Of a stretch of 32,163 nucleotides of DNA, positions 12,429-27,462 are shown piece by piece. The notes under the pieces were generated by a model, which was given only the letters and a program-made list of their open reading frames with translations, had not been told where the DNA came from and did not search any database. Made by a program: the position numbers and the translations under genes. The first letter of the stretch is position 1; each line of letters starts with the position of its first letter. Where the stretch lies: positions 1 through 32,163 of the forward strand of contig JBAQHK010000242.1 in assembly GCA_049288275.1 (NCBI GenBank), given 5' to 3'. The stretch is from a bacterium. GTDB taxonomy: Bacteria > Arandabacterota > Arandabacteria > Arandabacterales > Arandabacteraceae.

Positions 12429-14252
12429 TCACCGCACCAGCACGGCCAAGACCACAACCGCGCCCGCTATTAGCCAGACAAGGCCCCCGGCGAAGAAGCC
12501 GCTGTGCAAGACCTTGGCTCCCCTCGCGAGATACCCGACCAGGTCCCTGCCGTACTCATAGATGTCGAGGTTCTTGGCCCCGGCCCAGCGCTGGATCCTC
12601 TTGAAGCACGGCATGTCCGTGATGGTGTTGTAGAATTCCGTGCCGGTTACCCGCGCCTCGGCCGGAAGAATCTCGCCGCCGACGTAGGCCGAATCGCGCC
12701 TCACCGCCCTCGCCCGACCTGCGAGATATATCAGGAGCCCTATCCCCAGTCCCGCAAGTATCAGCAGCGTGGCAACGCCAAGGTTCCACCAATTGAGCCA
12801 GACGCCGCCACCGGGAACCCGGAGCGAGGGAACCGCGCTCACCGCCGGCACGATGAAGGCCTTGAGCGGCAGCGCGTAGGCGAACACTCCAAACACCAGC
12901 CCGACCACGCCAAGCAGAATCATCGGGAGCCACATGAGGATGCCGACTTCTTTGGGCCCCTGGCCGCCCCTCGCCCTTATCCCCAGAAAGACTCCGTGCA
13001 GGAGCTTGACGAAGCTGGCGAGCGTCAGGGCCGAGCCGAACATGGCCGCGACAAGCCAAATCACCCAGAGATGACCGCCGCCCTTGCCCAGATCGACGAT
13101 CCCCTGGTAGACCATCCATTTCGAGGCGAAGCCGCCGAAGGGCGGGACGCCGGATATGGCCAGCGCCGCCAGCAGGCAGGACGCGAAGGTCACAGGCATG
13201 AACCGCGCCAGGCCCCCAAGCTTGTCGAGGCTGGTTGTTCCCTCGCGCTTCTCCACCGCGCCGCCTGTGAGGAAGAGACATCCCTTGGCGATCGCGTTGT
13301 TGAGCATGTGGAAGAGCCCGCCGGCAACGCCGACGGGATTCAGGGTGCCTATGCCGATGACCATGTAGCCCACCTGGCTGACCGCGTGGTAGCCCAGCAA
13401 GCGCTTCATGTCGTGCTGAACCAGCGCCATCATCACGCCGCCCAGGAGCGTGACCGCGCCGACGACGAGCAGTATCAGCGCCATGGCGGGCGTCAGATTA
13501 AACAGGTGAAGCGATACCCGCGCCAGCAGATAGATCCCCAGGAGTTTGTCAAGGGACGCCGGCAGGAAGGCCACCGCGGAAGCGGGGCCGGCCTCGGCGG
13601 CCTCGGGCACCCACCCGTGGAAGGGCATGGCTCCTGCCTTGGCGAACGCGGCGCAGGCAAACAGTATGAAGGTCAGGCAGGCCAGCCCGGTGATCGTCGG
13701 TATGGCTTCCTGGGTAAGACTGGTGGAGCCGGTCATCAGCCAGAGGATCACCACCGCAAACGCAAGCAGCGCGTCGGTTCCGCCCACTATGATCGAGGTC
13801 TTCTTGACCGCGGCGGAGGCCGAGGCTCCGGCGACGTCTATCAGGAGATGGAGCATCAGGCCCAGGAATGCCCACATGGCCACCAAGAGGATCATGTCGT
13901 TGGCCAGGACCACCCCGCAGGCCGCCGCCAGGGACAGCAGTGAGTAGCCGTAGTACTCGCCCAGGCGGCTCCTGTCTTTCATGAAGCCCACCGAGTAGAG
14001 CATCATCAGGAATCCGAAGATGCCCACCCAGAGGAGGACAAACGACGAGAGGGCGTCCACCTTGAGCATGGCGACGCCGAAAACCTTGGCCTCGACCCAG
14101 CCCTGGCGGAAGAGCAGAATCGCGACGACCAGCGTCACGGCCGACGCCACCAGGGTGATCGTCTCACGCACGCCCTTCAGGGCCCCGGGGAGGACTCTCA
14201 CCAGTATCCCGGCAATAGCGGGCACCACAATCGTGTAGAGCGTTAGCTCCAT
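12429..14252 (-). CDS. NuoL/HycC-like antiporter-type membrane subunit (607 aa)
   Basis: MPFHGWVPEA, GYHAVSQVGYM and SGVPPFGGFASKW motifs. Size and architecture are those of HycC/HyfB/MbhH. Its start overlaps the large-subunit stop by 10 nt (ATGGAGCTAA). Confidence 0.85.
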   Translation of the reverse strand: MELTLYTIVVPAIAGILVRVLPGALKGVRETITLVASAVTLVVAILLFRQGWVEAKVFGVAMLKVDALSSFVLLWVGIFGFLMMLYSVGFMKDRSRLGEYYGYSLLSLAAACGVVLANDMILLVAMWAFLGLMLHLLIDVAGASASAAVKKTSIIVGGTDALLAFAVVILWLMTGSTSLTQEAIPTITGLACLTFILFACAAFAKAGAMPFHGWVPEAAEAGPASAVAFLPASLDKLLGIYLLARVSLHLFNLTPAMALILLVVGAVTLLGGVMMALVQHDMKRLLGYHAVSQVGYMVIGIGTLNPVGVAGGLFHMLNNAIAKGCLFLTGGAVEKREGTTSLDKLGGLARFMPVTFASCLLAALAISGVPPFGGFASKWMVYQGIVDLGKGGGHLWVIWLVAAMFGSALTLASFVKLLHGVFLGIRARGGQGPKEVGILMWLPMILLGVVGLVFGVFAYALPLKAFIVPAVSAVPSLRVPGGGVWLNWWNLGVATLLILAGLGIGLLIYLAGRARAVRRDSAYVGGEILPAEARVTGTEFYNTITDMPCFKRIQRWAGAKNLDIYEYGRDLVGYLARGAKVLHSGFFAGGLVWLIAGAVVVLAVLVR

Positions 14253-15463
14253 ATTCTGTCCATCCTCGACCCGTACTTCTCAATCAGGTTACGGGTCTTC
14301 TCGTGGGACATCCTCAGGAGATCCTTTCCTGTAGCGATCTTCCTTCCCGTCCCCGCTTCTACCACCATGGTCCGCTCGGTGCAACAGTAGCACGGGTCGA
14401 TGGCCGCCAGGGTGATTGTGGCGTCCGAGACCGTGTACCCCACGCAGGCCCGCTTGTTGGTGGGGACGTTCATGTAACTCGGAGCCCGTATCTTGTAACG
14501 CAGCGGCTTGTTGGTCCCGTCCGAGCGGGTGAAGTGAATCACCTCACCGCGCGGCGCCTCGTGAGTGCCAATGCCCTCGCCGGGCGGTATCTCGATGTAG
14601 TTGGCGTCTATGCCGTCCTTGACCTCGAGGATCTTCTGGACGCACTGCTTGCAGATGCCCACCGATTCCAGAATCTCAAGGACCCGCACCACCAGCTTGT
14701 CGAAGATGTCGCCGTTGGCGGTGGTTATCACGTTGAACTTCACCCTGTCGTAGGCCGCGTATGGGTGGTCCCTTCTGACGTCGATGTCGTAGCCCGAGGC
14801 CCGCGCCGTTGGGCCCAGCGCTCCCAGCTCCACGCAGTCCTGCTTCGAGAGAACGCCGACGTTCTTGGTCCGCGCCTGAAGCACCGGGTCCGAGAGCGCG
14901 ACGTCCCTGAACATCATGGTGGGCTTCACCAGGCCGTCCAGCGTCGCGAGCACCTGCCGCATGTCTTCGTCGGCGAAGTCCCGCCGCACTCCTCCGGGCT
15001 TCATCATCCCGTAGTGGTTGCGGTTGCCGGTCAGGAGCTCGAAGAGATCCAGCACCGGCTCCCGGTACTTCCAGGCCCACATCCACACCGTGTTGTAGCC
15101 CAGGAAGTGACCCGCAAGCCCCAGCCACAGGAGGTGCGAGTGGATTCGCTCCAGCTCTCCTATGAATGTCCTGATGTACTTCGCACGCTCCGGTATGTCC
15201 AGATTGGCGCAATCCTCTATCGCCTGGACGCAGGCGAAGGGATGCGACGACGAGCAGATGCCGCATATCCGCTCCACGAGGAAGGGAATCTGATCGTAGC
15301 TCAGGTTCTCGGCGAGCTTCTCGATCCCCCGGTGGTTGTAACCGATCTCGATCTCCAGTTCGACGACCTTCTCGCCCTCGACGTGGAGCTTGAAGAACTC
15401 CGGCTCCTCCTGAAGGGGATGATAGGGACCGATAGGTATGATGGTCTTACTTGTTCTTGCCAT
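14243..15463 (-). CDS. [NiFe] hydrogenase large subunit, group 4 (HycE/EchE/MbhL-like)
   Basis: N-terminal L1 motif RICGICSSSH and C-terminal L2 motif DPCYCCTER followed by a ~45-aa extension. ATG 15463 has GGAGAG 9 nt upstream and is preferred over GTG 15472. Confidence 0.9.
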   Translation of the reverse strand: MARTSKTIIPIGPYHPLQEEPEFFKLHVEGEKVVELEIEIGYNHRGIEKLAENLSYDQIPFLVERICGICSSSHPFACVQAIEDCANLDIPERAKYIRTFIGELERIHSHLLWLGLAGHFLGYNTVWMWAWKYREPVLDLFELLTGNRNHYGMMKPGGVRRDFADEDMRQVLATLDGLVKPTMMFRDVALSDPVLQARTKNVGVLSKQDCVELGALGPTARASGYDIDVRRDHPYAAYDRVKFNVITTANGDIFDKLVVRVLEILESVGICKQCVQKILEVKDGIDANYIEIPPGEGIGTHEAPRGEVIHFTRSDGTNKPLRYKIRAPSYMNVPTNKRACVGYTVSDATITLAAIDPCYCCTERTMVVEAGTGRKIATGKDLLRMSHEKTRNLIEKYGSRMDRIWS

Positions 15464-15914
15464 TGTCCCCACCTCTCCAGTCCTTCCAGTCCCTCCGCAA
15501 CGGCCAGTTGTCCTTTGGCCAGTCGTCGGTCAACAGCAGGTGCCTCATGTCGGGATGGCCCTTGAACTCGATGCCCAAGAGCTCGTTCATCTCGCGCTCG
15601 ATCCACTCCGCGGCCGGCACACGGGTCGCGATGGACCCGATCGAAGGCGCTTGGCTGTCAAGCACTACCCTGAGATTGACAAAGCGGCCGGCCTTGTCGT
15701 CGGCGAAGTGATACAGGATTTCCATCCCGTGGGCCATGTGCATGCCCGTGGCTATCGAGAAACGGCACCCCAGGTCCTTGTAAAGGTACTCAGCCATGTC
15801 CGGAAGCCGCTTCGGGTCCACGGTTATGAAGGTCCGCCTCGGGCTCTTCTCATAGACCTCGACGACCGCGCCGCCGAACTTCCCCTTGAGGCCCTGGACT
15901 ACCTCGTCCGCCAT
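15447..15914 (-). CDS. NuoC-like (30-kDa) subunit of group 4 hydrogenase (HycE N-domain/EchD/MbhK-like)
   Basis: Similar to the NuoC family (…EYLYKDLGCRFSIATGMH…HPDMRHLL…). AGGAGGG lies 8 nt upstream of ATG 15914. It overlaps the large-subunit start by 17 nt. Confidence 0.8.
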   Translation of the reverse strand: MADEVVQGLKGKFGGAVVEVYEKSPRRTFITVDPKRLPDMAEYLYKDLGCRFSIATGMHMAHGMEILYHFADDKAGRFVNLRVVLDSQAPSIGSIATRVPAAEWIEREMNELLGIEFKGHPDMRHLLLTDDWPKDNWPLRRDWKDWRGGDNGKNK

Positions 15915-15937
15915 CTGCCCACCCTCCTGTCTCCTGC

Positions 15938-16369
15938 CTATTTCTTGAGCGCCGCAAGCTTGGCCTCGACCAGCGCGACAACCGCCTGTATCATGGCCTC
16001 AGGCTTGGGCGGACAACCGGTGATGTACGCGTCAACGGGAATGACCGAATCCAGCGGTTTGGTCTCGTTGTAAGACGGGCCAAACATCTCCGTGGAGCAG
16101 GAGCAATTGCCCACGGCGATCACGAAGCACGGCTGCGCGGCCTGGGCGATCACCCGCTTGAGGCGCTCGCCGGACTTCCTGTTCATCGAGCCCGTGACCA
16201 GGATCGCGTCCGCGTGGCGAACGCTGCCCACCAGCTGTATCCCGAAACGCTCGAGGTCGAACCGCGGCGTAAGCGCATCCAGTATCTCGATGTCGCAGTT
16301 GTTGCAGGGGCTCGCCGCGAGATGGAAGACCCATATCGATTTGGTTAAGGCTTTCAGCTTCAGGCTCAT
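15938..16369 (-). CDS. [NiFe] hydrogenase small subunit, group 4 (NuoB/HycG-like)
   Basis: SPCNNCDIE, GNCSCS and GCPPKPE are the NuoB-family cluster-binding motifs. ATG 16369 is preceded by GAGGACAGGG. The upstream 17 aa of the ORF-track call are rejected. Confidence 0.85.
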   Translation of the reverse strand: MSLKLKALTKSIWVFHLAASPCNNCDIEILDALTPRFDLERFGIQLVGSVRHADAILVTGSMNRKSGERLKRVIAQAAQPCFVIAVGNCSCSTEMFGPSYNETKPLDSVIPVDAYITGCPPKPEAMIQAVVALVEAKLAALKK

Positions 16370-16379
16370 GCCCTGTCCT

Positions 16380-17330
16380 CTACAAACCCAGAAACGCCAG
16401 AACCACCGCCAGGACGCCAAAGGGCGCGACCCCGATCCAGAAGAACCTCATGATCTGGTCGATCCTCAGGCGCGGATTGGTGTTACGGATCAGCACCATA
16501 ACGAGCAGGATGCCGAAGTACTCCAGCACCGCCCAGAGTATATTGAGATAAGAGCCTCTCCAATTGATGCCGCCCAGGAAGAGCACCAGGAGCAGCAGGG
16601 GGACCGTGAACTGCATCATCCAGTTGGTCAGCTTGAACAGCGCCAGCGCGACCCCGGAATACTCGATGTAAGCCCCGCCCATGATCTCGGTCTCGGCCTC
16701 CGGAGCGTCGAAGGGCACCTTGGCCAACTTGGCCTGCATCACCAGGAGCGAGATCACGAGCGCGATCGCTCCCGAGAAAGACGCCACGAAGGGCCTGGCC
16801 GCGGCCTGGGCCAGCACGATCTCGCCAAGCCTCAGGGTCGAGCCGGCCTTGATGATCGCGACAACTACCGCCAGCAGGAAGGGCAGCTCGTAGGCCAGGA
16901 TCAGCTTGGTTTCCCTGGAACCTCCCAGGGAGGCCAGCGGATTGGCCGACGCGAACGCCCCCAGGATTACCGCCTGCGAGGGCACGGTCAGAAGGTAAAG
17001 CACCACGACGAGATCGCCGGCGAAGCCCTGCTCCGGGAATATCACCGCCCGAATCAGGAGAGCCGTCACCACACCGATCGCTGCGAAGCCGAACAAGGGC
17101 GCCGACAGGAACAGGAACTTGGAGGCTCCCTCCGGCACCACTACCTGCTTGCCCAGGAGCTTTACGAAGTCGTAGAGCGGCTGGAAGAAGGGCGGTCCCA
17201 CCCTCCACTGCACCCTGGCGGTTATCTTGCGGTCGAACCAGTGAGCGAACATGCCGACAACGGCGGCCACGACGAACCCGCCTACAAGAAAGCCCGCGGT
17301 CTCCAGCACGCCCGACACAGTTCCGTTCAT
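16380..17330 (-). CDS. NuoH/HycD-like membrane subunit
   Basis: Polytopic 316-aa protein with the NuoH-family RVQWRVGPPFFQPLYDFVKL and YIEYSG segments. Confidence 0.85.
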   Translation of the reverse strand: MNGTVSGVLETAGFLVGGFVVAAVVGMFAHWFDRKITARVQWRVGPPFFQPLYDFVKLLGKQVVVPEGASKFLFLSAPLFGFAAIGVVTALLIRAVIFPEQGFAGDLVVVLYLLTVPSQAVILGAFASANPLASLGGSRETKLILAYELPFLLAVVVAIIKAGSTLRLGEIVLAQAAARPFVASFSGAIALVISLLVMQAKLAKVPFDAPEAETEIMGGAYIEYSGVALALFKLTNWMMQFTVPLLLLVLFLGGINWRGSYLNILWAVLEYFGILLVMVLIRNTNPRLRIDQIMRFFWIGVAPFGVLAVVLAFLGL

Positions 17331-17339
17331 AGAATCATG

Positions 17340-17822
17340 CTACCTTTTCCAAACATCGCATCTGACTATCAGGTGATCGCTCACCTGGCGAAGCCGTTCG
17401 GCCTCGTTGGGTTCGATCTCGGTCCACCGGATTGCTCCCGCCGGGCAGGTCCTCACGCACAGCGGCTCCTCCGCGGGAGCGATCCGCCCGAGGCAGTAAT
17501 CGCATCGCGACAGCCCGTAGGGGATCAATTCCGGGTAGATGGTGCCGAAGGGACAGGCCAGGGAGCACGACTTGCAGCTTATGCACCTCATGTTGTGGCG
17601 CCTGAGCACGCCCTTGTCGTCCTTCTCCAGAGCCTCCTTGGGGCAGGCGTTGACGCAGTTGGCGAACTCGCACCGCCGGCATATCACCGCGTAGGCCGCC
17701 AGCTCCCTCAAGGACGTCACGCCGTCGTTGCCCGGATGATAGGGATAGCTGCACTTGGCAGGGCAGTCGCCCCGCTCGGCGCACCGGTCGCAGACGTCCA
17801 GATCAATGAACAGTCGCTTCAA
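17340..17822 (-). CDS. Polyferredoxin, HycB-like 4Fe-4S electron-transfer subunit
   Basis: 16 Cys in multiple Cx2Cx2-4Cx3CP-type motifs (CDRCAERGDCPAKC, CRRCEFANCVNACP, CISCKSCSLACP, CDYCLGRIA..CVRTCP). The start is TTG 17822 with no in-frame ATG nearby; GAGG lies 8 nt upstream. Confidence 0.75.
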   Translation of the reverse strand: MKRLFIDLDVCDRCAERGDCPAKCSYPYHPGNDGVTSLRELAAYAVICRRCEFANCVNACPKEALEKDDKGVLRRHNMRCISCKSCSLACPFGTIYPELIPYGLSRCDYCLGRIAPAEEPLCVRTCPAGAIRWTEIEPNEAERLRQVSDHLIVRCDVWKR

Positions 17823-17867
17823 TCCTCAAACCTCACTGCCTCGTTTCCGGCGACTAATCCATGGCGA

Positions 17868-18701
17868 TCAATCCCAGATCGCCGGCTTGCCCTTGACTTG
17901 CTCATAGGTGAGCACGGGGCCGTCCCTGCAAACCAGGTACTGGCCGAGCATGCAATGGCCGCACTTGCCTATGCCGCAACTCATGTTCTTTTCCATCGAA
18001 AGGTAGATCGCGCTGTCCGGGAAGCCCAGCTCCACAAGCCGCAGGGTTCCGAACTTCATCATGATCGGCGGCCCGCAGACCACCGCCACCGCGCTGGCAA
18101 CGTCCAACCCGAGGTCCTTCACGACGGTGGTCACGACTCCGACGTTGCCCTTCCACGTTGGGTCGCCCACGTCCACCGACAGCCGGAACTCGATCTTGCC
18201 GGGGCCGAGCTTCTGCCAGCTGTCCAGGATCAGGCCCTTGTATATGATGTCCGAGGGGCTCTTGGCGCCGTAACAGAAGATGATCTTCTTGAAGTCATCC
18301 AGCCTGTGCAAGAGCGCGAAGAACAGCGAACGCAGGGGAGCAAGTCCCACGCCGCCGCCGAGGATCAGGATCTCCCTGCCCTTGAAATGGTCCAGGGGAT
18401 AGCCCTTGCCCATCGGGCCGCGCACACCGACAGCGTCGCCCTTGCGCATGCCGTGGAGCACGCTGGTAACCTTGCCGGCGCGCATGATGGTGAAGTCCAG
18501 GGTCTCGGTAACCTTGGGGTCCGACGACGGGGTAAACGGCGCCTCGCCCAGGCCCGGCACGGTGACCTCCATGAACTGCCCGGCCTCGAAGGGTATGGGC
18601 CGGCTGGGCTTCAGGACGAAGGTCTTTATGGTCGGGCTCTCCTCTATGACCTCGAGGATCTCGGAGAGCACGGGTTTGTAGATGTCTGGTGTTACCGGCA
18701 T
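17868..18701 (-). CDS. FNR-like FAD/NAD(P)-binding [2Fe-2S] protein (AsrB/HydG/SudB/NfnA family; gamma subunit)
   Basis: RAGKVTSVLHG resembles the FAD-binding region. ILGGGVGLAPL is the NAD(P) Gly-rich loop. C-terminal CGIGKCGHC is the [2Fe-2S] motif. ATG 18701 with GAAGGA upstream overlaps the preceding gene by 10 nt. Confidence 0.8.
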   Translation of the reverse strand: MPVTPDIYKPVLSEILEVIEESPTIKTFVLKPSRPIPFEAGQFMEVTVPGLGEAPFTPSSDPKVTETLDFTIMRAGKVTSVLHGMRKGDAVGVRGPMGKGYPLDHFKGREILILGGGVGLAPLRSLFFALLHRLDDFKKIIFCYGAKSPSDIIYKGLILDSWQKLGPGKIEFRLSVDVGDPTWKGNVGVVTTVVKDLGLDVASAVAVVCGPPIMMKFGTLRLVELGFPDSAIYLSMEKNMSCGIGKCGHCMLGQYLVCRDGPVLTYEQVKGKPAIWD

Positions 18702-19711
18702 ACTTCCTTCAGCACCTTTCTCATGTCGATCTTGCCGGGGCAAGCCGCGATGCAGCGGCCGCAGCCCGTGCACCCGTCGAATCCGTAGTTCTTGGGGAAG
18801 TAATCCAGCTTGTGATAGTACCTGTGCTTGAAGCGTTCAACCAGATGCTTGCGCGGATTGGCGCCCCCCGCGACCTGCGCGAAGCGCTTGTAGGCGCAGG
18901 CATCCCAGGCCTTGAGCCGCTTGTACCTGTCGCCGGCCTTCTCGTCGTACAAGAGGAAGCACTGGCATGTGGGGCAGATGAACAGGCAAGCCCCGCACTC
19001 CACGCAGGTCTCCACGTTCTTGGCCCAAGTGGCGTCGTCGTAAGCCTTGGCCAGGAGATCCTGCCAGGTGGTGGGCGGCTTGAATTCCTTGGACTGCTTT
19101 TCTACTATCTCCAGGGTCTTCTGCCGCCGGGCTCGCCGCTCGTCCAGCCGAGCTTCGGCCGCGGGCTTGAAGATGGTCGCGTTGGCCTCGACAGCCTGCC
19201 TGCCCTTGTCGCTGCCCACCTCGACAACGTAGCCGCCGGTGACCTCGCTCAAGTTGAGATCGAAACCCTTCTCGGCATAGGGCTTGACGCCCACCAGCAC
19301 GCAGAAGCAGGTCTCCAGAGGCTCGGTGCAGTCGGCGCTGACGATGAAGCTCTTCTCCCGTCGATCTCGGTAGAAGGGATCCTGGAAATCGCCCTCGAGG
19401 AAGACACGGTCCAGGGCCTCTATGGCCCGAACGTCGCAGGCCGACGCGCCGACTATGGCGAAGGGCCTGGATTCCTTGAGCGAGGAGGCACTTGAAGGGT
19501 ATTCTGCGACCTCCTCGAGCATCGAGAAGAACAGGGGCTTCAAGGGTTGGAAGGACCTCACGCCCGGCCAGGAGAAGCCGCCGACTTCCGAGTAGGGCTT
19601 CATTCTCACCCGGCCCTGATCGTCCTTGTCGGCTACAAACAGGTCACCACGCTTATGAAGGTAGGATAGGAATGTAGCGAAGTCCGATCCCGTCACGTAG
19701 TAGGCAGTCAT
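18692..19711 (-). CDS. AsrA/HydB-like iron-sulfur protein (sulfhydrogenase beta / anaerobic sulfite reductase subunit A family)
   Basis: CVECGACLFICPTCQC and CTGCGRCIAACP are ferredoxin motifs, plus a CFCV motif. It pairs with the FNR-like gene as in HydBG/AsrAB. ATG 19711 is preceded by AGGAAGAAGG. The ORF-track 40-aa N-terminal extension is rejected. Confidence 0.75.
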   Translation of the reverse strand: MTAYYVTGSDFATFLSYLHKRGDLFVADKDDQGRVRMKPYSEVGGFSWPGVRSFQPLKPLFFSMLEEVAEYPSSASSLKESRPFAIVGASACDVRAIEALDRVFLEGDFQDPFYRDRREKSFIVSADCTEPLETCFCVLVGVKPYAEKGFDLNLSEVTGGYVVEVGSDKGRQAVEANATIFKPAAEARLDERRARRQKTLEIVEKQSKEFKPPTTWQDLLAKAYDDATWAKNVETCVECGACLFICPTCQCFLLYDEKAGDRYKRLKAWDACAYKRFAQVAGGANPRKHLVERFKHRYYHKLDYFPKNYGFDGCTGCGRCIAACPGKIDMRKVLKEVCR

Positions 19712-19778: not shown

Positions 19779-19869
19779 AGGATATTGCCGCCGGAAGCCC
19801 TTGTCAAGCGAAACCGGCACTTGGAGCCCAAACTCGTTAATATTACTACAAGTGGGGCGGCAGTGCAAC
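19779..19869 (-). promoter_or_regulatory. Promoter region of the hydrogenase operon: two candidate sigma70-like hexamer pairs, including an AT-rich island unusual for this GC-rich DNA
   Basis: Read on the minus strand: TTGCAC (19868-19863), a 16-nt spacer, TAATAT (19846-19841). A second candidate is TTGACA (19808-19803), an 18-nt spacer, TATCCT (19784-19779). The AT-rich tract spans 19831-19854. Confidence 0.35.
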
Positions 19870-19892
19870 AGGTTTTGGCGGCTCGCCCGCGT

Positions 19893-20035
19893 GACGCCTC
19901 GTTGGCGAAAGCCCTTCGCTCAGAGTACTGATATTCGCTACGGGCAATTCGCCAACATCGGCGCCCTTCAGGGCGAGGCGAGGGAAGGGGATTGATGCGG
20001 AGGCGAATGGGGTTCTGAGCCGGAGCGCAATCCCC
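19893..20035. repeat. Copy 1 (one-ended/partial) of a MITE-like repeat family; contains one ~28-nt terminal repeat and internal hairpin GGGGATTG-N34-CAATCCCC
   Basis: 19923-20035 is the near-exact reverse complement of 24744-24857. 19896-19922 and 19944-19963 also match 24659-24684 and 24704-24724 in direct orientation. The element sits between the stop of the PAS gene and the hydrogenase promoter. Confidence 0.7.
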
Positions 20036-20051
20036 AACCGAGCGCTCGCTG

Positions 20052-20450
20052 CTACGAGCCGGCGGGGCGGGGCTGGCAGTGGTCTCGGACGTGGGTCATG
20101 TCCTGGGCGATCTCCAGACAGCCCAAGTAGCCGCCGCGCTCGTCCCTCAGGGCCAAGTACCTCACGTTGACCAGCCTGCCGTCGAGGTCCACCCACGCCT
20201 CCACCAAGTCCTTTACGCCGGATCTGAGGTCGGCGATCACCTTGTCGACGGCGGGCACGCTCTTGGCGGGATGACAGCTCTGAACGCTGGTGCCCAATAT
20301 GGCCTTGGTGCGGGTGAAGAGCCTGTGCCGGGGTTCATTGAAGTAGAGGATGGTGTCGTCCGGGCCCACGAAGGTCAGGTCCCCCGGCACGGCGTTCAGG
20401 ATTGCGAGCATAGTGTCGAGGTCGATCATGCCATGCCCAGTTTCAATCAC
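20052..20450 (-). CDS. PAS-domain protein (PAS_10 / DUF438-associated PAS type), stand-alone
   Basis: ILNAVPGDLTFVGPDDTILYFNE...RLFTRTKAILGTSVQSCHP...DLRSG...WVDLDGRLVNVRYLALRDERGGYLGCLEIAQDMT matches the PAS_10 pattern. GTG 20450 overlaps the upstream stop (GTGA); an alternative ATG lies at 20429. Confidence 0.65.
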   Translation of the reverse strand: MIETGHGMIDLDTMLAILNAVPGDLTFVGPDDTILYFNEPRHRLFTRTKAILGTSVQSCHPAKSVPAVDKVIADLRSGVKDLVEAWVDLDGRLVNVRYLALRDERGGYLGCLEIAQDMTHVRDHCQPRPAGS

Positions 20451-20689
20451 CGGTCCTGCTGGCGACGGTAAATCAGACGAGCGCGCAGCTTGGACAGGAG
20501 CTCGTCACGCGCCGCGGCCCCGTCGCCGGCTTCTCCCGTCGTGGCGACCTCGCCTCCTGCAAGACCGGTCTTGTAACGGTCGCAGTCGTGATACTCACCG
20601 AGGCAGAAGGCCCACGCCAGGTGCATCTTGTCCTCTTCGCGGGAGAAGACCTCGAAGCCAGCGCACCTCGTCGCAAAAGGACAGCTCAT
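20447..20689 (-). CDS. Small Cys-rich protein (80 aa), unknown function, translationally coupled to the PAS gene
   Basis: ATG 20689 with GGGAG 8 nt upstream. The N-terminal half has C-x6-C-x19-C-x4-H-x-C (MSCPFATRCAGF...AWAFCLGEYHDCDRY). A low-complexity Gly/Ala linker and a basic C-terminus follow. Confidence 0.5.
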   Translation of the reverse strand: MSCPFATRCAGFEVFSREEDKMHLAWAFCLGEYHDCDRYKTGLAGGEVATTGEAGDGAAARDELLSKLRARLIYRRQQDR

Positions 20690-20805
20690 GCCGTCCACTC
20701 CCGTGCCATTGCGGTCCCCTTTCGGCTCCGCCCGGGCCGCCCACGCCTACCGCGCCGACCCGAAATCGGTGGATAATGCGAAGCCCATGAGTTAACCTAA
20801 GCACC

Positions 20806-23595
20806 ATGTCGGTCTTTCGCAAGAGTGGACAGACGCGGCTCATCGTTGTCGCCGTGTGCGTCGCGATCGGCGCGGCCGCCGCCTTTACCCAGTACGTGCA
20901 CCGCGGCTACGTCGGGGCGATCGAGGCCGGCGGCTCGGTCAGGTTGCTGGACAGCGGCCTGCACTTGAGAGCGCCCTGGAACCGGGTGACCTTCTATCCT
21001 GTCCGGTGCTGGGACACCACGATCAAGTCGTCGACCGAAGGCCCCCAGGGCAGGGTCAACTTCGACCTCCTACTGAGACTCTCGGTGAGCCGCGACCAGG
21101 TGCCCTCGTTGCACACATCATACAAGGGCAGGTACGTCGAGATGCTGGTCGCGCCCCTCGTGGCGGATTTCCTGAAGCGGCGAGGGGACGCGTCGCTGGA
21201 CTCCTACGGATCCGGCGCGGTCGCCGTGGGCAAGGACCTGGTTGCCTATCTCAACTCCGCGCTGGCACCTTACGGCGTCACCGTCTTTGGCGCTGATATC
21301 CGTTCCTACGAGGTGGTCACCAATCCCGAGGACCAGAGGATCGCCGCCGAGGCGCGCGCCCTCGGCGGACAAGTGATCCTGCTGGGAATCGACGCCTTCG
21401 ACTGGCAGGTCTATAGGGAGGTCTCACGATCCAGGCGCCTGCCCAACATAGAGCGCCTGATATCCGAAGGGACAACCGGGGATCTTCTGTCCATGGAGCC
21501 CATAGTGTCGCCCATGATCTGGACCACCATGGCCACCGGGGTCGAGCCCCCGGTGCACGGCATTGTGGACTTCCTGATGAAGGACGCCGCCACCGGTGAG
21601 GACGTGCCCATAACCAGCTCCATGCGGCGAGTGCCCGCCCTGTGGAACATGGTCACACGCTACGGCGGGTCCGCCGGCTTCATAGGCTGGCTGGGCACCT
21701 TCCCCGCCGAACCCGTGAGGGGCTTCATGGTCTCCGACAGGGTCGGCTACCACATCTTCGACCCCAGATGGCAGAAGGGCGCCTCCTACGAGGCCGACGC
21801 GGAGCGCGCCAACCTGGCAGTCGAGGGGCTCACCTATCCGGACAGCCTGCTGGAGGAGATACGACCGCTGGTCAGGAGCGCCGAAGACATCCGCTACCAG
21901 ACGGTCTCCAAGTACATAGAGGTTCCGCCCGAGGATCTCGCCTCCGACGCCAAGACCTTCGATCCCCTGGACCTGCCGCGTAATCTCAGAGTGGCGCTGG
22001 CATCCAATGCCACCTACGAGGCCGTGGCTCAATTCACTTACGAGAAGTTCGGGCCCGACGTGTTCTCGGTCTACCTCGACCTCATCGACAACGCTTGCCA
22101 TCTCTTCATAAAGCACATGGCGCCCCACACGCCGGACGTCTCCGACCGGGACGCCGCCAGGTACGGGCAGGCTGTGGCACAGGCTTACGCGCACGTCGAC
22201 AGCGTGATCGGCTGGTGGCTCGACGCGATCGACTCCGAAACCACCTTGATGGTGATATCCGACCACGGCTTCAAGAGCGGCGACCTTCGCCCCGCGGCGC
22301 CCTCGGTGATCGGCGCTCCCGCGGCGACAGCCTGGCACAGGATGGCTGGAGCTATAGCGCTCTGGGGCAAGAACGTCAGGCGGGGCGCCACCCTGTCCGG
22401 GGCGCGCGTCATAGACGTGTGCCCGACGGTCCTCGCGCTGGCGGGCCTTCCCGGGGCCGAGGACATGCCCGGCGTGGTGCTCGAGGACGCCTTCGACCCG
22501 GAGTGGGTGACGTCCCGGGCGGCCATCGAGCCGATAGAGACCTACGGAGCCAGGACCGATATCGCGGCCTCCCCCCGGAACCGGGAGGAGGAGGCCGCGA
22601 TTCTGGAGCGGCTGAAGGCGCTGGGCTACGTGGGCAGCGGCCCGACCGACCTGTCCAAGCTCGCGCACTCGCACTTCATCAAGGGCGAGTTCGACAAGGC
22701 GATCGAGATATGGCGCGAGATGCTCTCCCGGGATCCCTCCAATCTTGATGTGATGGTGTCGCTGGCCAATGCTCTGATCCAGAAGGGCGACCTGGATCGC
22801 GCCTACACCGTGCTCCGGGATGCTTCCAAGCGGGATCCCGATCACCTGCCTTCCCAGAACATGCTGGCCCTATACCACATCAACGTCGGGCACCTGGATG
22901 AGGCGGCGCGGATTTCGGCCCAGGTGATCGCCAGGGATGCCAAGAACGCGGAGGCCTACTTCAACCTGGGGGTGACCTATGACCTCCAGGCAAGGTACGA
23001 TCAGGCGCTCTCAGCCTTCAAGCGGTCCGTCGAGCTGCGGGGGGATTTCGATCAGTCCAGGATCAACCTGGGCAACGCCTACCTTCGCAAGGGCAACACG
23101 ACGGAGGCGAGGGCGCAGTTCGAGAAGGCTCTCGAGGTAAACCCGGCCAGTACCCACGCGTGGTATTCACTGGGAAAGGTTTTGCACAGCACGGGGCAAC
23201 CCGACGAGGCCGCGCGAGCCTATCGGGAGGCGCTCAAGCACACCCCTGCCTTCAGCCCAGCGCGCATAAGCCTCGCGGTGACTCTGGTGTCATCGGGCCG
23301 AATGGCTGAGGCCAAGCGCGAGCTCGAGCAGGGCCTCGGGTACCCTTACGACCTCGCGGCCATCAACACCAACATGGGCATAATCGACCGCCAGATGGGC
23401 GACGACTCCTCCGCTGAGAGGCGCTTCCGTCAAGCGATCCAGGAAGACCCCGAGTATCTGCCTGCAAGGTTGGACCTCGCCCGACTGTACTTCGATCGAG
23501 GCGATAAGGCCAAGGCGCGCAAGGAGTTGGAGGCCGTCCTAAGACTGGACCCCGGTAATCGCGAAGCCAAGGCCGCCGTGGAAAGCCTGGAGTAA
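20806..23595 (+). CDS. Three-domain membrane-anchored protein: SPFH/band-7 domain + type I phosphodiesterase/nucleotide pyrophosphatase (alkaline-phosphatase superfamily) domain + C-terminal TPR repeats
   Basis: aa 1-190: TM anchor LIVVAVCVAIGAAAAF plus an HflC-like SPFH pattern (VRLLDSGLHLRAPWNRVTFYPVR...). aa ~190-600: VILLGIDAFDWQ...SPMIWTTMATG...ISDHGF, AlkP-core metal-ligand motifs. aa ~615-929: at least seven TPR-like repeats. Confidence 0.8.
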   Translation: MSVFRKSGQTRLIVVAVCVAIGAAAAFTQYVHRGYVGAIEAGGSVRLLDSGLHLRAPWNRVTFYPVRCWDTTIKSSTEGPQGRVNFDLLLRLSVSRDQVPSLHTSYKGRYVEMLVAPLVADFLKRRGDASLDSYGSGAVAVGKDLVAYLNSALAPYGVTVFGADIRSYEVVTNPEDQRIAAEARALGGQVILLGIDAFDWQVYREVSRSRRLPNIERLISEGTTGDLLSMEPIVSPMIWTTMATGVEPPVHGIVDFLMKDAATGEDVPITSSMRRVPALWNMVTRYGGSAGFIGWLGTFPAEPVRGFMVSDRVGYHIFDPRWQKGASYEADAERANLAVEGLTYPDSLLEEIRPLVRSAEDIRYQTVSKYIEVPPEDLASDAKTFDPLDLPRNLRVALASNATYEAVAQFTYEKFGPDVFSVYLDLIDNACHLFIKHMAPHTPDVSDRDAARYGQAVAQAYAHVDSVIGWWLDAIDSETTLMVISDHGFKSGDLRPAAPSVIGAPAATAWHRMAGAIALWGKNVRRGATLSGARVIDVCPTVLALAGLPGAEDMPGVVLEDAFDPEWVTSRAAIEPIETYGARTDIAASPRNREEEAAILERLKALGYVGSGPTDLSKLAHSHFIKGEFDKAIEIWREMLSRDPSNLDVMVSLANALIQKGDLDRAYTVLRDASKRDPDHLPSQNMLALYHINVGHLDEAARISAQVIARDAKNAEAYFNLGVTYDLQARYDQALSAFKRSVELRGDFDQSRINLGNAYLRKGNTTEARAQFEKALEVNPASTHAWYSLGKVLHSTGQPDEAARAYREALKHTPAFSPARISLAVTLVSSGRMAEAKRELEQGLGYPYDLAAINTNMGIIDRQMGDDSSAERRFRQAIQEDPEYLPARLDLARLYFDRGDKAKARKELEAVLRLDPGNREAKAAVESLE

Positions 23596-23614
23596 TTGCT
23601 GCTTCCTTCCGGTT

Positions 23615-23658
23615 TGCAACACATCCGTGTTGACAAACTGCGGGCCACCTAGTATTTT
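23615..23658 (+). promoter_or_regulatory. Integrase promoter TTGACA-17-TATTTT with overlapping inverted repeat CAACAC-ATCC-GTGTTG
   Basis: TTGACA at 23630-23635, a 17-nt spacer, TATTTT at 23653-23658. The inverted repeat at 23617-23632 overlaps the -35. AAGGAG lies 7 nt before ATG 23713. Confidence 0.4.
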
Positions 23659-23712
23659 CATCATCACAGCGGGACGTGTTAAGAGGGCACGATTCGTCGA
23701 AGGAGCGTCGAC

Positions 23713-24582
23713 ATGAATGCTGGCAAGCAGGCTTTGGCACCCCAGGATACTGTAAAAGTCTTCAAACAGGATTTGCTCGCACGCGGATACAGCGCGCGCA
23801 CGGCGGAGGTTTACGCCACGGCGGTCGCCGCCTTTCTCAAGTCAGTTCCCAACCCGGCCGGCCCCGCACCCGAGGACGCGGACAGGTACATTCGCGGAAT
23901 CCTCGACGGGACTTCGAAGGGCGGGGCGTCGCAGTCGTCGGTGGGAATTGCCGCCAGCGCGATCAAGCTGCTTTACAAGCACCAACTCGGCAGGCCGCTG
24001 GAGCTTTCCGTGGAGCTCAAGCGCAGAGCGCGGCCGATGCCCTCGATCCTCTCCAAGGACGAGATCCAGAAGATAGTCACGGTCACACGCAACGTGAGCC
24101 ACAGACTGATCTTTCAGCTGATGTACTCCTCAGGACTCAAGCTGGACGAGCTTCTGGGACTCAAGGTGAAGGACGTGGAGATCGAGCAGAAGCGGCTGAC
24201 GATCAGGGGCAACGCCAAGAGCGGCAGGAAGGCCAAGTCGTCCCGGGAAACCATTCTCTCGGACAAGATCGCTCCGATGCTGCATGCGTTTGTTTCCGAC
24301 AGGGACCCCGAGGACCATGTCTTCCCGGGCATCGAGGGCGGCCCCATGACCCCGAGGGCAGTGCAGAAGGCGTTCAAGCAGGCGCTGAAGAAGGCCGAGA
24401 TCAAGAAGCGCGCCAGCTGCAACTCGCTGAGGCATTCCTTCGCGGTTCATCTGCTGCAGAAGGGAACCGACATCAAGCACGTCAGGAGGCTCTTAGGCCA
24501 CGCCCGGACCGAGACCACCTCGATCTACAAGCGCTTCATCACCGAGGAGGTCGTGAAGATCAAGAGTCCGCTCGACCTGTAG
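23713..24582 (+). CDS. Tyrosine site-specific recombinase (XerC/XerD-like integrase family)
   Basis: C-terminal catalytic region SLRHSFAVHLLQKGTDIKHVRRLLGHARTETTSIY shows the R..HxxR..Y pattern of the tyrosine recombinase active site. An N-terminal SAM-like core-binding domain is present. Confidence 0.85.
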   Translation: MNAGKQALAPQDTVKVFKQDLLARGYSARTAEVYATAVAAFLKSVPNPAGPAPEDADRYIRGILDGTSKGGASQSSVGIAASAIKLLYKHQLGRPLELSVELKRRARPMPSILSKDEIQKIVTVTRNVSHRLIFQLMYSSGLKLDELLGLKVKDVEIEQKRLTIRGNAKSGRKAKSSRETILSDKIAPMLHAFVSDRDPEDHVFPGIEGGPMTPRAVQKAFKQALKKAEIKKRASCNSLRHSFAVHLLQKGTDIKHVRRLLGHARTETTSIYKRFITEEVVKIKSPLDL

Positions 24583-24610
24583 CCGCCCGTCGATCAGGCA
24601 GCAACACAGC

Positions 24611-24640
24611 GACCCCGCGAGTGCCCCTCGCGGGGTCTTC
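24611..24640 (+). terminator. Candidate intrinsic terminator after the recombinase gene (11-bp GC-rich stem, 5-nt loop, short U-run)
   Basis: GACCCCGCGAG-tgccc-CTCGCGGGGTC at 24611-24637, followed by TTC. The downstream U-tract is weak. Confidence 0.45.
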
Positions 24641-24656
24641 GCATTGGGACCCTCCA

Positions 24657-24887
24657 GGCGCCTCGTTGGCGAAAGCCCTTCGTTCAGCACTACATTCACT
24701 CCGCGCAATTCGCCAACATCGGCGTCACCCGCCGAGGCTTCGGTCGGGGATTGCGCTCCGGCTCAGAACCCCATTCGCCTCCGCATCAATCCCCTTCCCT
24801 CGCCTCTGCCGCACGTGGGCCGAGGAAGGGCCGATTGCCCGTAGCGAATATCAGTACTCTGAGCGAAGGGCTTCGGCCCGACGAGGC
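24657..24887. repeat. Copy 2 (complete) of the MITE-like repeat: ~230 bp bounded by imperfect ~28-bp terminal inverted repeats; no coding capacity
   Basis: Left end is GCGCCTCGTTGGCGAAAGCCCTTCGTTCAG (24657-24684). Right end 24859-24887 is its reverse complement at ~23/28 identity. The interior matches copy 1 in inverted orientation. A third partial direct copy of the terminal repeat plus GCAATTCGCCAACATCGGCG lies at 24657-24724. Confidence 0.7.
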
Positions 24888-24912
24888 CCCGACGCCGGCA
24901 GCCGGGCTGAGC

Positions 24913-24985
24913 TTGACTTGCCGCGCGGCCTCGCTTAGAGTGCAACGTGGCACGCTGCTTCAAGGCTCCCGGGTGATCCGATCAC
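24913..24985 (+). promoter_or_regulatory. Promoter of the hrb-fprA-rbr operon (TTGACT-17-TAGAGT) and downstream palindrome GTGATC-C-GATCAC (candidate operator in the 5' UTR)
   Basis: TTGACT at 24913-24918, a 17-nt spacer, TAGAGT at 24936-24941. The perfect 6-1-6 inverted repeat lies at 24973-24985. GGAGG lies 9 nt before ATG 25042. Confidence 0.4.
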
Positions 24986-25041
24986 GGAAAACCTGTGGAG
25001 CGATCGCGCATCACATGGGAAAGCCCCGGAGGTGGATGTAG

Positions 25042-25752
25042 ATGGACGCCAGAGCCTTGTGGCTGTGCAGCTACGGCCTGTACGTGGTCAGCTCTAAGAA
25101 GGGTGACAGGATGAACGGCCAGGTCGTCAACACGGTCTTTCAGGTCACCGCCGAGCCACCGACCATAGTGGTAAGCATCAACCGCTCCAATCTCACTCAT
25201 GAGTTCATCTCGGCGAGCAAGGTCTTCTCGGCCTCGATCCTCTCCACCGAGACCCCGATGCCCTTCATAGGCAAGTGGGGCTTCAAGTCCGGAAGGGAGA
25301 TAGACAAGTTCAAGGACACCGAGTTCAGGCTGGGCAAGACCGGAGCGCCGGTGGTTCTTGACCACTCCCTGGCTTTCATCGAGGCGGAGGTGATCTCCGG
25401 CCTCGATGTCGGCACGCACACGGTCTTCGTCGGCAAGGTCGTGGACTGCGGCGTGCTGCGCGAGGGCGAGCCCATGACCTACGCCTACTATCATCAGGTT
25501 AAGAAGGGCAAGACGCCCAAGGCGGCGGCGACATACCAGGAGGAGAAGCGGGAAGAGAAGAAGGCCGAGCCAAGAACGGAGGCGAAGACGATGAGAAAAT
25601 ACAGATGCACGGTGTGCGGCTACATTTACGACCCACAGGTCGGAGATCCCGACGGCGGCATCAAGCCCGGGACCGCGTTCGAGAACATCCCCGACGACTG
25701 GGCCTGCCCGGTGTGTGGCGTGGGCAAGGATCAGTTCGAACCTGCGGAGTAG
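25042..25752 (+). CDS. hrb: High-molecular-weight rubredoxin: flavin reductase-like (FMN-binding) domain fused to a C-terminal rubredoxin domain
   Basis: The N-terminal flavin-reductase-like fold begins [14 protein letters not shown]...VNTV...[13 protein letters not shown] Lys/Glu-rich linker follows. The C-terminus has rubredoxin Cys pairs [10 protein letters not shown] and [12 protein letters not shown]. The same architecture occurs in Moorella Hrb. Confidence 0.85.
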
Positions 25753-25781
25753 CGCAGTAGCGGCAGCGGAGGACGATGGGC

Positions 25782-26969: not shown

Positions 26970-26988
26970 GCGGTCAAGGAGGAAGCGA

Positions 26989-27462
26989 ATGAATGCCTTC
27001 AAGGCGGGCGAGATTCTTCAGGTTGCCGTCAGGATAGAGGAAAACGGCGAGAAGCTCTACCGGCACGCCAGGGGCCTTGCCGACGATCCGAAGCTGAAGG
27101 ACCTCTTCGGTTTCCTGGCCGGCGAAGAGGCCAAGCACAAGAAGACCTTCGCGGAGATGGCCTCCGAGCTCGAAGCCTACGAGCCACCCGAGACCTATCC
27201 CGGCGAGTACCTGGCCTACATGCGCGCCTACGCCGACAACCTGGTCTTCCCTGCCGACCTTATGGAAGAGGAGCTGGAGGACATGTATGATGTCGACGAG
27301 GCCGTCGAGTTCGCCCTCCAGCGCGAGATTGAATCCATTCTGTTCTACATCGAGGCCAAGGCGCTGGTACCCCAGGCCCAGGCCGACGCGCTCGACAAGA
27401 TAGTCGCCGAAGAGCGCAGGCATTACCTGAAGCTGGTCGAGGTGAAGAAGAGCCTGGACTGA
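26989..27462 (+). CDS. Rubrerythrin/ferritin-like diiron protein lacking a rubredoxin domain
   Basis: Two E-x2-H motifs (GEEAKHKK and EERRHYL) fall in four-helix-bundle spacing. AAGGAGGA lies 5 nt upstream. It is the third gene of the hrb-fprA cluster. Confidence 0.75.
   Translation: MNAFKAGEILQVAVRIEENGEKLYRHARGLADDPKLKDLFGFLAGEEAKHKKTFAEMASELEAYEPPETYPGEYLAYMRAYADNLVFPADLMEEELEDMYDVDEAVEFALQREIESILFYIEAKALVPQAQADALDKIVAEERRHYLKLVEVKKSLD

Follow-up and report, generated by a model that had tools for sequence, protein, structure and literature searches.

Repetitive extragenic palindromes (REPs, also called palindromic units or PU) are organized as bacterial interspersed mosaic elements (BIMEs) in enterobacteria, while in Pseudomonas REP doublets that form hairpins, known as REPINs, occur with RAYT transposases (PMC3116915, PMC3337134, PMC3479197). 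Here we analyse a 32,163-nt contig (JBAQHK010000242.1 of GenBank assembly GCA_049288275.1; 'the window' refers to this whole stretch) in which a repeat occupies two intergenic regions, and find that the repeat belongs to a dispersed, non-coding mosaic family of palindromic units that are arranged as inverted doublets and undergo rapid structural turnover. REP/BIME and REPIN–RAYT are the closest known systems, followed by BOX and ERIC elements; the REPIN definition used for comparison is that of PMC3337134.

The units described here, of which we distinguish the subtypes M1, M2 and M3, resemble REPs, BIMEs and REPINs in being short, non-coding, imperfect palindromes able to form a stem-loop, confined to extragenic space and divided into several subtypes. 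As in those systems, neighbouring units are inverted, the spacers between them are poorly conserved and the number of units per cluster varies; the hairpin is kept while the sequence drifts, copies often lie just past stop codons, and singlets, long palindromes and other by-products of rearrangement occur. They differ in length (65–70 nt, exceeding the usual 20–40 nt) and in that the most conserved part is not the stem but a largely unpaired core of 30–38 nt with a TTCGCT...TTCGCT direct repeat. The GTAG head is absent, the units starting with GSCTCGG, no RAYT gene was seen in the DNA examined, and the hosts are uncultured lineages.

BOX elements of Streptococcus pneumoniae are modular (boxA-boxB-boxC), and the ERIC elements (or IRUs) of Enterobacteriaceae are imperfect palindromes of ~127 nt; both are intergenic. 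ERIC is unusually conserved across genera. The present units share with them the occurrence in either orientation, a variable number of modules and stable predicted hairpins. Neither element resembles the units here in sequence. BOX modules are not related to one another as inverted homologues, and in ERIC one long palindrome takes the place of a doublet of units.

Copies and unit architecture in the window

The window holds three M1 and two M2 units, distributed over two full copies and one partial copy as follows.

19893–20045, + strand: copy A, a full doublet of M1, variable linker and M2 (repeat search, blastn, nhmmer, pairwise alignment)
19894–19963, + strand: A-M1 unit, a long hairpin whose core has two TTCGCT repeats (nhmmer E = 2e-19, folds, covariation)
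19895–19898/19960–19963, + strand: A-M1 outer stem
19901–19909/19948–19956, + strand: A-M1 middle stem, GTTGGCGAA / TTCGCCAAC
19911–19914/19942–19945, + strand: A-M1 inner stem, GCCC / GGGC
19978–20044, + strand: A-M2 unit, with flanks GCGAGGGA and AACCGAGCG and a near-invariant core of 33 nt (nhmmer E = 5e-19)
19987–19994/20028–20035, + strand: A-M2 stem, GGGGATTG / CAATCCCC, enclosing 33 nt
24739–24890, − strand: copy B, a full doublet with M1 at 24819–24890 and M2 at 24739–24803, both on the − strand (repeat search, nhmmer, alignment)
24657–24724, + strand: copy C, a solo partial M1 that abuts copy B (repeat search, 23-mer, nhmmer)

An earlier note, made from the letters of this stretch, had reported a repeat in two intergenic regions in opposite orientation, and copies A and B confirm it: they are 86% identical over 165 nt (blastn), with A matching the third, partial copy at 87% over 69 nt. 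The repeat search of the window recovered two adjacent inverted-repeat pairs, 19958–20048/24733–24823 (91 nt, 88%) and 19904–19953/24829–24878 (50 nt, 92%), and two direct-repeat pairs linking 19886–19963 to 24650–24724. On pairwise alignment A and B share two long identical blocks, one running from the M1 core (AGCCC..GGGCAA) and one of ~65 nt running from GAGGCGAGGGAAGGGGATTG to CAATCCCC, with a divergent stretch of ~25 nt in between that corresponds to the 3′ stem of M1 and the linker; the near-perfect reverse complement previously proposed over 113 bp holds for the two blocks but not for the whole. A conserved terminus of ~28 nt had also been proposed. The 23-mer GCCTCGTTGGCGAAAGCCCTTCG does occur exactly twice, at 19896 and 24660 and both times on the + strand (0 expected from 100 shuffles); its second occurrence lies in copy C, which had not been recognized as a separate copy. 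A 26-mer core likewise has exactly two occurrences (none expected, 100 shuffles). Copy C combines A-type stems with a degenerate core (a 3-nt deletion and substitutions) and is inverted relative to the M1 of B, so that C, M2 and B-M1 make up an M1-M2-M1inv composite of 234 nt. The spurious open reading frames (ORFs) at 19801–19995 (+) and 24763–24963 (−) do have the peptide KPFAQSTDIRYGQ in common, as had been noticed, and a coding role is ruled out because one-nucleotide indels separate the copies.

Every full copy consists of two hairpins, M1 and M2, with an unconserved linker between them. In M1 (~70 nt), a GCC/GGC outer stem and an internal loop are followed by a middle stem of 7–9 bp and an inner GCCC/GGGC stem of 4 bp, and the DNA fold of A-M1 has a z-score of −5.1. 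M2 (~67 nt) comprises a flank GCGAGGGAG, a stem of 7–8 bp, a core of 33 nt and a flank GACCGAGCG; the 8-bp stem GGGGATTG/CAATCCCC had been described before, with a loop given as 34 nt that is in fact 33 nt. In general form, a unit carries a terminal motif GSCTCGG ... CCTCGSC, a closing stem whose bases are free to vary while pairing is kept, and an almost invariant core of 30–38 nt. We considered and rejected an outer stem between the 5′ end of M1 and the 3′ end of M2, which has only four to six invariant pairs without covariation; these ends are better described as the terminal motif common to homologous units.

The GTTGGCGAA/TTCGCCAAC arms are found at 19901/19948 in A and at 24665/24709 in C, and between these two copies the stem arms are identical while the core differs, the pattern from which conserved arms around a variable loop had been deduced. 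It is restricted to the A/C pair. Between A and B the cores are identical and the M1 middle stem changes from GTTGGCGAA/TTCGCCAAC to GGGCCGA/TCGGCCC with compensation, and it is this pattern, a conserved core between covarying arms, that holds family-wide.

Covariation and homology between units

M1 stems are paired at 96.7%, with double changes in 5 of 10 pairs and a score that none of 500 shuffles reaches, and slid controls drop to 21–52% paired. Among the 21 copies of M2, one stem pair is GC in 16, AU in four and CG in one, and never unpaired, while two further stem pairs show one double change each; the observed covariation score and number of double-changed cells were reached by 0 of 500 shuffles, and the number of pairs with a double change by 21 of 500. 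M3 stems likewise vary with compensation. Judged by these compensatory changes in M1 and M2, the hairpins are under selection, in line with the earlier proposal of selection for a structure. G-U and A-C pairs are about equally frequent overall (about 6 versus 5), and the comparison does not decide which strand folds.

The subtypes are related to one another. Global alignment of M1 with the reverse complement of M2 scored 15, against −5.7 ± 4.3 in shuffles (0 of 1000 as high), and M1 with M3 scored 22 (0 of 1000); the alignment of M1 with M2 in the same orientation was not significant. M1 and M3 are therefore subtypes in the same orientation and M2 is an inverted, diverged homologue, and a full copy pairs two related palindromic units that face opposite ways. 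A unit in locus L037 (L numbers denote the individual loci compared) is intermediate between M2 and reverse-complemented M1, with M2 stems and flanks around a centre like that of reverse-complemented M1.

Copies in other genomes

About 20 further copies were found in a Candidatus Eisenbacteria metagenome-assembled genome (MAG; JAZDEY01) and in metagenome contigs, and were read in 8-kb loci centred on the hits. A 20-mer from the M2 core matched at three loci of the one MAG, loci that together hold six M2 hits (one partial), and a 19-mer matched at 19 metagenome loci, 10 of them with true family members and the rest by chance. With nhmmer unit profiles, the copies resolve into mosaics that include M1-M2, M1-M2-M1inv, M1-M2-M3, M3-M2 and solo M2, as well as half-M1-M3-M2-M3 and M2-M1variant-M2-half-M1. 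The M1-M2-M1inv composite in L015 is 233 nt long and has the same layout as B+C in the window.

All clusters are intergenic and both orientations relative to local transcription occur, in tandem, divergent (L010, L012, L018) and convergent (L023b, L029) settings. Several are only a few bases away from a stop codon, and the L021 cluster overlaps the last ~10 codons of a gene. The flanking genes are unrelated (LpoB, M6 peptidase, radical SAM, HflX-type GTPase, alkaline phosphatase, MFS and, judged by eye, TldD-like), with no consistent gene association across the clusters and no transposase among the flanking genes. The family thus has the REP-type traits of strictly extragenic dispersal at unrelated loci and of inverted neighbours with variable spacers.

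Rfam 15 gave nothing relevant, at gathering thresholds or at E ≤ 10, for the window, both sites and six other copy-bearing loci. Viral contigs scanned with M2 and M1 patterns had no match, and a full-text literature search on 'Eisenbacteria' returned no paper on repeats. With no match in Rfam 15 and further copies in other genomes, the suggestion that this is a genuine new repeat family is upheld; further copies and structural conservation, which the earlier note had named as things to check, were both found, and the assembly artefact that it had considered is excluded by independent assemblies that carry the family.

In three orthologous loci of an Eisenbacteria-like lineage (L012, L018, L023), the left flank and the first M2 are held in common. 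L012 (3950–4480) carries an extra block of 189 nt, consisting of an M1 variant, M2 and half M1, relative to L018:812-1200, and in L023 (20–420) the right flank switches a few bases after M2 to an HflX-type GTPase gene. Such differences suggest that the units may serve as breakpoints of genome rearrangement.

Unit boundaries have a further regularity. Half-M1 units end in GCTCAGAG/GCTCAGGA, and a complete M3 starting GCTCGG comes immediately after them (L011:7383-7622; L029:591-763; L026:3099-3122), M2 ends in the complement of that M3-start motif (CCGAGC), and a short GCTCNG/CCTCG motif is present at nearly all unit boundaries and also within cores. This motif could be a cleavage or recombination site.

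A separate observation concerns the M2-core 19-mer GATGCGGAGGCGAATGGGG, which in three homologous loci coincides with the last 5 leader bases and the first 14 bases of a tRNA-SeC gene:

L019:3016-3118: tRNA-SeC locus with GATGCGGAGGCGAATGGGG
L024:4184-4285: tRNA-SeC locus with GATGCGGAGGCGAATGGGG
L030:4198-4299: tRNA-SeC locus with GATGCGGAGGCGAATGGGG

The match is probably due to chance, because ~6 independent chance hits agree with what we roughly estimate for a 19-mer and a collection this large; a tRNA-derived origin of the M2 core is a less likely possibility.

Conservation across lineages

Between the window lineage (GC 0.64) and the Eisenbacteria-like lineage (GC ~0.60), the only alignable protein pair is 69% identical. 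M1, which was never a search key, is ~85% identical between the two, and M2 is ~90% identical with an identical block of 34 nt, in which the search pattern fixed 19 bases in advance. Intergenic DNA at the flanks could not be aligned even where proteins are 91–96% identical. Because the identity of the units far exceeds that of the flanking DNA, either the cores are constrained or the family has moved horizontally.

The two sites and their rearrangement in relatives

Copy A lies between the stop codon of a PAS_10 gene and the promoter region of an AsrA-like operon, and copies C and B lie between the terminator-like hairpin of a recombinase gene and the promoter of a flavin reductase operon. Genes in the window were called with Pfam and NCBIfam, and the surroundings of the two sites are as follows.

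17340–17822, − strand: 4Fe-4S protein
17868–18773, − strand: FAD/NAD oxidoreductase
18692–19711, − strand: AsrA/ShyB-like FeS protein
19779–19807, − strand: sigma70-like promoter TTGACA-17-TATCCT of the AsrA/ShyB-like operon (context)
20052–20450, − strand: PAS_10 protein, stop codon at 20052–20054
20806–23595, + strand: Band_7/phosphodiesterase/TPR protein
23713–24582, + strand: Xer-like tyrosine recombinase, 289 aa
24612–24638, + strand: G+C-rich hairpin GACCCCGCGAG..CTCGCGGGGTC after the integrase gene (context, outside the element)
24913–24941, + strand: sigma70-like promoter TTGACT-17-TAGAGT of the flavin reductase-rubredoxin/FprA/rubrerythrin operon, conserved in relatives; right edge of the insertion zone
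25042–25752, + strand: flavin reductase-rubredoxin
25776–26969, + strand: flavodiiron protein
26989–27462, + strand: rubrerythrin-like protein

The conserved upstream region of the AsrA/ShyB-like operon reaches ~19885, and copy A begins just past it. At the other site, the hairpin at 24612–24638 is kept in relatives with and without the element, and is the left edge of a hypervariable insertion zone that opens after ...TTCGCATT.

Syntenic contigs were reached through homologues of the flavin reductase and the recombinase. In four of them (L001, L005, L007 and L033; integrase at most 89% and flavin reductase 78–82% identical) neither site has any unit, and gene order, terminator hairpin and promoters are all retained. 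Paired repeats were looked for at both sites of L005, L007 and L001 and none were found, the site being filled by almost nothing in L005 and by unrelated sequence in L007. The recombinase is a resident gene outside the element, because these relatives without units retain it.

Two lineages whose recombinase is 95–96% identical carry units at both sites, in rearranged form. At the first site, L034 matches the window colinearly (87% over 472 nt), while in L037 M2 is inverted (83% over 71 nt, reverse strand) and M1 is deleted save for its last 15 nt, at an identical junction; the junction between CGCCAACGAGGCGCC and ACGCGGGC is the same in the window, L034 and L037 despite the flipped M2. At the second site, the block of C and M2 (window 24657–24806) is inverted in L034 (86.6% over 157 nt) and stands without the M1 of B, and in the L037 type only a remnant of ~28 nt of M2 is left. 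We take these to be fixed differences rather than fast switching, because the arrangements are identical across three independent samples (L034 = L035; L037 = L038 = L032).

The filler of the second site in the L037 type (L032:300-390, also L037 and L038) includes a perfect 20-nt tandem duplication (CCCCCGTCGGCGCCACCCGC twice) and a small hairpin GGTCGGCG..CGCCGACC, together with the M2 remnant, GCGCTCGGTCGG... A different direct repeat of 44 nt, GGCGGGCCCGCTCGCAGGCAACTGCAAGATACTGCCGCGCGAGA, is present in L001 (GCA_964356335.1) at 5249–5292 and 7868–7911, the two occurrences being 93% identical; one is intergenic and upstream of the AsrA-like gene, the other lies within or beside a methyltransferase gene. 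This may be another lineage-specific repeat family.

Interpretation and alternative explanations

Taken together, the units probably constitute a previously undescribed family of dispersed, non-coding and non-autonomous palindromic repeats of the REP/BIME/REPIN kind, with two and a half copies in the window. Under this interpretation the units would persist and spread as non-autonomous DNA, each forming a hairpin in single-stranded DNA, with the conserved core and terminal motif recognized by a trans-acting enzyme encoded elsewhere in the genome, for which a RAYT-like HUH/Y1 transposase would be the likeliest candidate. Homologous recombination or template switching between inverted units would then invert, delete and reshuffle blocks, and copies would survive only where they are harmless, that is, after stop codons or terminators and upstream of promoter regions. 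Where transcribed in a 3′ untranslated region (UTR) or an intercistronic region, the hairpins may incidentally stabilize or terminate transcripts; the units would not be gene-specific regulators.

Several points weigh against this interpretation. The mobilizing enzyme is something that we purely infer, and no RAYT, IS200-like or other transposase was found in the ~150 kb examined, the only probe being a weak tblastn search with an IS200 TnpA. No clean pair of filled and empty sites was captured, both window sites being hypervariable, so that insertion boundaries are undefinable. The units are two to three times the canonical REP length, with a large conserved unpaired core in place of a palindrome that pairs almost throughout, and no GTAG head. 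The very high cross-lineage conservation of the cores would also fit a functional RNA or recent horizontal transfer, 19 of the 34 identical M2 bases were dictated by the search pattern, and copy counts pertain to the hit-centred loci and the 32-kb window.

A REP/BIME-like family in this lineage extends mosaic palindromic repeats to a poorly known uncultured group, with a unit design unlike that of textbook REPs: the stem covaries, the core is long and invariant, and the three subtypes are interconvertible. Two sites in three lineages at 95–96% protein identity offer a compact natural example of intergenic remodelling by repeats through inversion, deletion and decay, and the invariant cores would mark the recognition site of any cognate enzyme. 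The family is also an annotation hazard, both through the spurious look-alike ORFs sharing KPFAQSTDIRYGQ and through long inverted repeats that may be confused with invertible segments, attC sites or regulatory RNAs near redox and O2-detoxification operons.

A more specific proposal, which we hold only tentatively and consider rather unlikely, is that the units are not passive filler but substrates of a dedicated enzyme whose target is a hairpin with an unpaired core that is long and sequence-specific, or alternatively that the near-invariant M2 core is a functional multicopy RNA such as a protein-binding decoy. In the first of these, the core has two TTCGCT half-sites and a GATATTCGC segment, which is reminiscent of HUH nick sites. 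If true, the enzyme version would mean a REPIN–RAYT-like partnership of host and element with a new architectural type in an uncultured lineage, and the flipping of M2 blocks between inverted M1 arms would belong to the enzyme's activity.

The earlier note had called the repeat MITE-like (MITE, miniature inverted-repeat transposable element), with an element of 230 bp. As a classical MITE, the 234-nt M1-M2-M1inv would be a deletion derivative of a DDE-type insertion sequence (IS) with M1 as its terminal inverted repeats, moved by the parent transposase through cut-and-paste, with doublets and solo units as decayed copies. Like Correia/NEMIS, RUP and Nezha, the repeats here are in the 100–250-nt size range, non-coding and intergenic, their composite form has inverted ends, and their presence differs between close and distant relatives. 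The composite with inverted M1 ends was found twice at near-equal size (234 nt in B+C and 233 nt in L015), and independent insertions could explain why a block stands in opposite orientations at one site in the window and L034. Against this, no target-site duplication and no common target motif was seen at 15 cluster boundaries, and no IS element, and hence no identifiable parent, was found in the loci examined, as judged by flanking genes and the weak tblastn probe. The supposed terminal repeats are 70-nt hairpins with exchangeable stems, unlike at the two ends of one element (A-type versus B-type), and inverted ends exist only in the composite of B+C and L015, the doublets and solo units lacking them. 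Units occur alone and in many orders, and M3-M2, M2-M1v-M2 and half-M1-M3-M2-M3 are not derivable from one composite; the junction between CGCCAACGAGGCGCC and ACGCGGGC, unchanged though M2 is flipped, indicates rearrangement in place and not re-insertion. We therefore find a classical MITE improbable. What had been taken for one element resolves into palindromic units of ~65–70 nt in three subtypes that are shuffled, truncated and inverted, for which REP/BIME/REPIN-like mosaic units, or the analogy with BOX/ERIC, provide a better description.

It is similarly doubtful that M1, M2 or both act as transcribed, structured RNA, whether as a multicopy small RNA or protein sponge or as a host-selected 3′-UTR stabilizer or terminator. 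Covarying stems around invariant cores, and cross-lineage conservation far above that of flanking DNA, are what such a role would leave, and M2 has three GGA motifs and a GGAGG-N4-ATG mimic that would suit a sponge. One M2 pair is U-A in 15 copies and U-G in six on the given strand, which on the other strand would be an A.C mismatch; several clusters begin a few nucleotides past a stop codon or overlap a gene end (window A, L012 at 7856, L015, L021), and folding z-scores are −2.2 on the + strand and −4.7 on the − strand. This single-pair asymmetry is, however, absent overall. Orientation relative to neighbouring transcription is mixed: L012c, L015, L021 and L031 lie in the sense direction, both window copies in the antisense direction with respect to read-through. 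The units have neither a conserved promoter nor an intrinsic terminator at their flanks, copies are often truncated, hybrid or inverted, the closest relatives lose or decay copies without visible replacement (second site of the L037 type), and no Rfam family matches.

The narrower possibility of a riboswitch or cis-regulatory leader was rejected. A and B are not leaders because both lie upstream of, and antisense to, neighbouring promoters; other copies are convergent or 3′ to unrelated genes, and there is no Rfam hit.

Very unlikely, in our view, is that the repeats are recombination sites of the adjacent Xer-like recombinase, with A and B bounding an invertible 4.7-kb segment or with M1 units flanking an invertible M2 (an inverton), such that inversion would switch expression of the two redox operons. 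The A/B inverted repeats do bracket a segment encoding a tyrosine recombinase (23713–24582), whose best NCBIfam matches are XerA and integron-integrase models, and M2-containing blocks are inverted between close relatives at both sites. Yet the recombinase and gene order are kept in relatives without repeats (L001, L005, L007, L033), Eisenbacteria-like copies have no recombinase nearby, and the recombinase scores under every curated cut-off. Genes between A and B follow one order in the window, L034 and L037, leaving the 4.7-kb segment unflipped, and each arrangement is constant over three independent samples, which speaks against rapid phase variation. An inverton was rejected on the same grounds of fixed arrangements per lineage and a recombinase kept where repeats are absent, together with the lack of any promoter-like site reported by the scans in the element or evident by eye in M2.

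Integron attC sites are characterized by R″/L″–L′/R′ boxes (RYYYAAC...GTTRRRY), a variable loop and an IntI with an extra domain. They are, like the units here, imperfect palindromes (57–141 nt for attC) and act as folded single strands, as is proposed for the units, and the recombinase with its integron-integrase-like best match adjoins copy C. In attC, however, conservation falls on the stems (R/L boxes) and the loop varies, the reverse of the pattern here, and the GTT...AAC polarity is reversed in A and C and absent from other copies. The copies do not flank cassettes in one orientation, and the recombinase, present in relatives without repeats, has 289 aa and reaches a score of 156 where the TIGR02249 cut-off is 265; attC was accordingly rejected.

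Chance similarity or a collapsed or chimeric contig can be dismissed almost entirely, since its sole support is that the window is a MAG contig, while shuffles expect zero matches, the same units are present in independent assemblies (NCBI and several JGI samples) and the orthologous L034 copy is colinear with the window over 472 nt.

Other observations at the locus

Gene order around the two sites is strongly conserved across many metagenomic lineages (window 14243–19711 and 20052–27462 versus L001, L005, L007 and L034). It begins with NiFe-hydrogenase/complex-I-like genes, the 4Fe-4S protein, the FAD/NAD oxidoreductase, the ShyB/AsrA-like protein, PAS_10 and a small ORF, and continues with Band_7 (with or without phosphodiesterase-TPR), the Xer-like recombinase, flavin reductase-rubredoxin, the flavodiiron protein, rubrerythrin and a methyltransferase; the resident recombinase is fixed within a redox and O2-detoxification neighbourhood.

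By eye, a further promoter-like pair, TTGCAC-17-TAATAT, was noted at 19840–19868 (−), upstream of the TTGACA/TATCCT promoter of the AsrA/ShyB-like operon and below the scan threshold. A block CAAAAYCTGTTGCRC...TAGTAITAT...GGTTTCGCTTGACA is conserved in L005, L007, L034 and L037, and its conservation suggests tandem promoters or an operator.

Finally, a 22-nt exact direct repeat, CTGGAGCGGCTGAAGGCGCTGG, lies at 22603–22624 and 26400–26421, inside the TPR/phosphodiesterase and flavodiiron genes, and encodes LERLKAL in frame in both; it may be a codon-biased coincidence or a small conversion tract.

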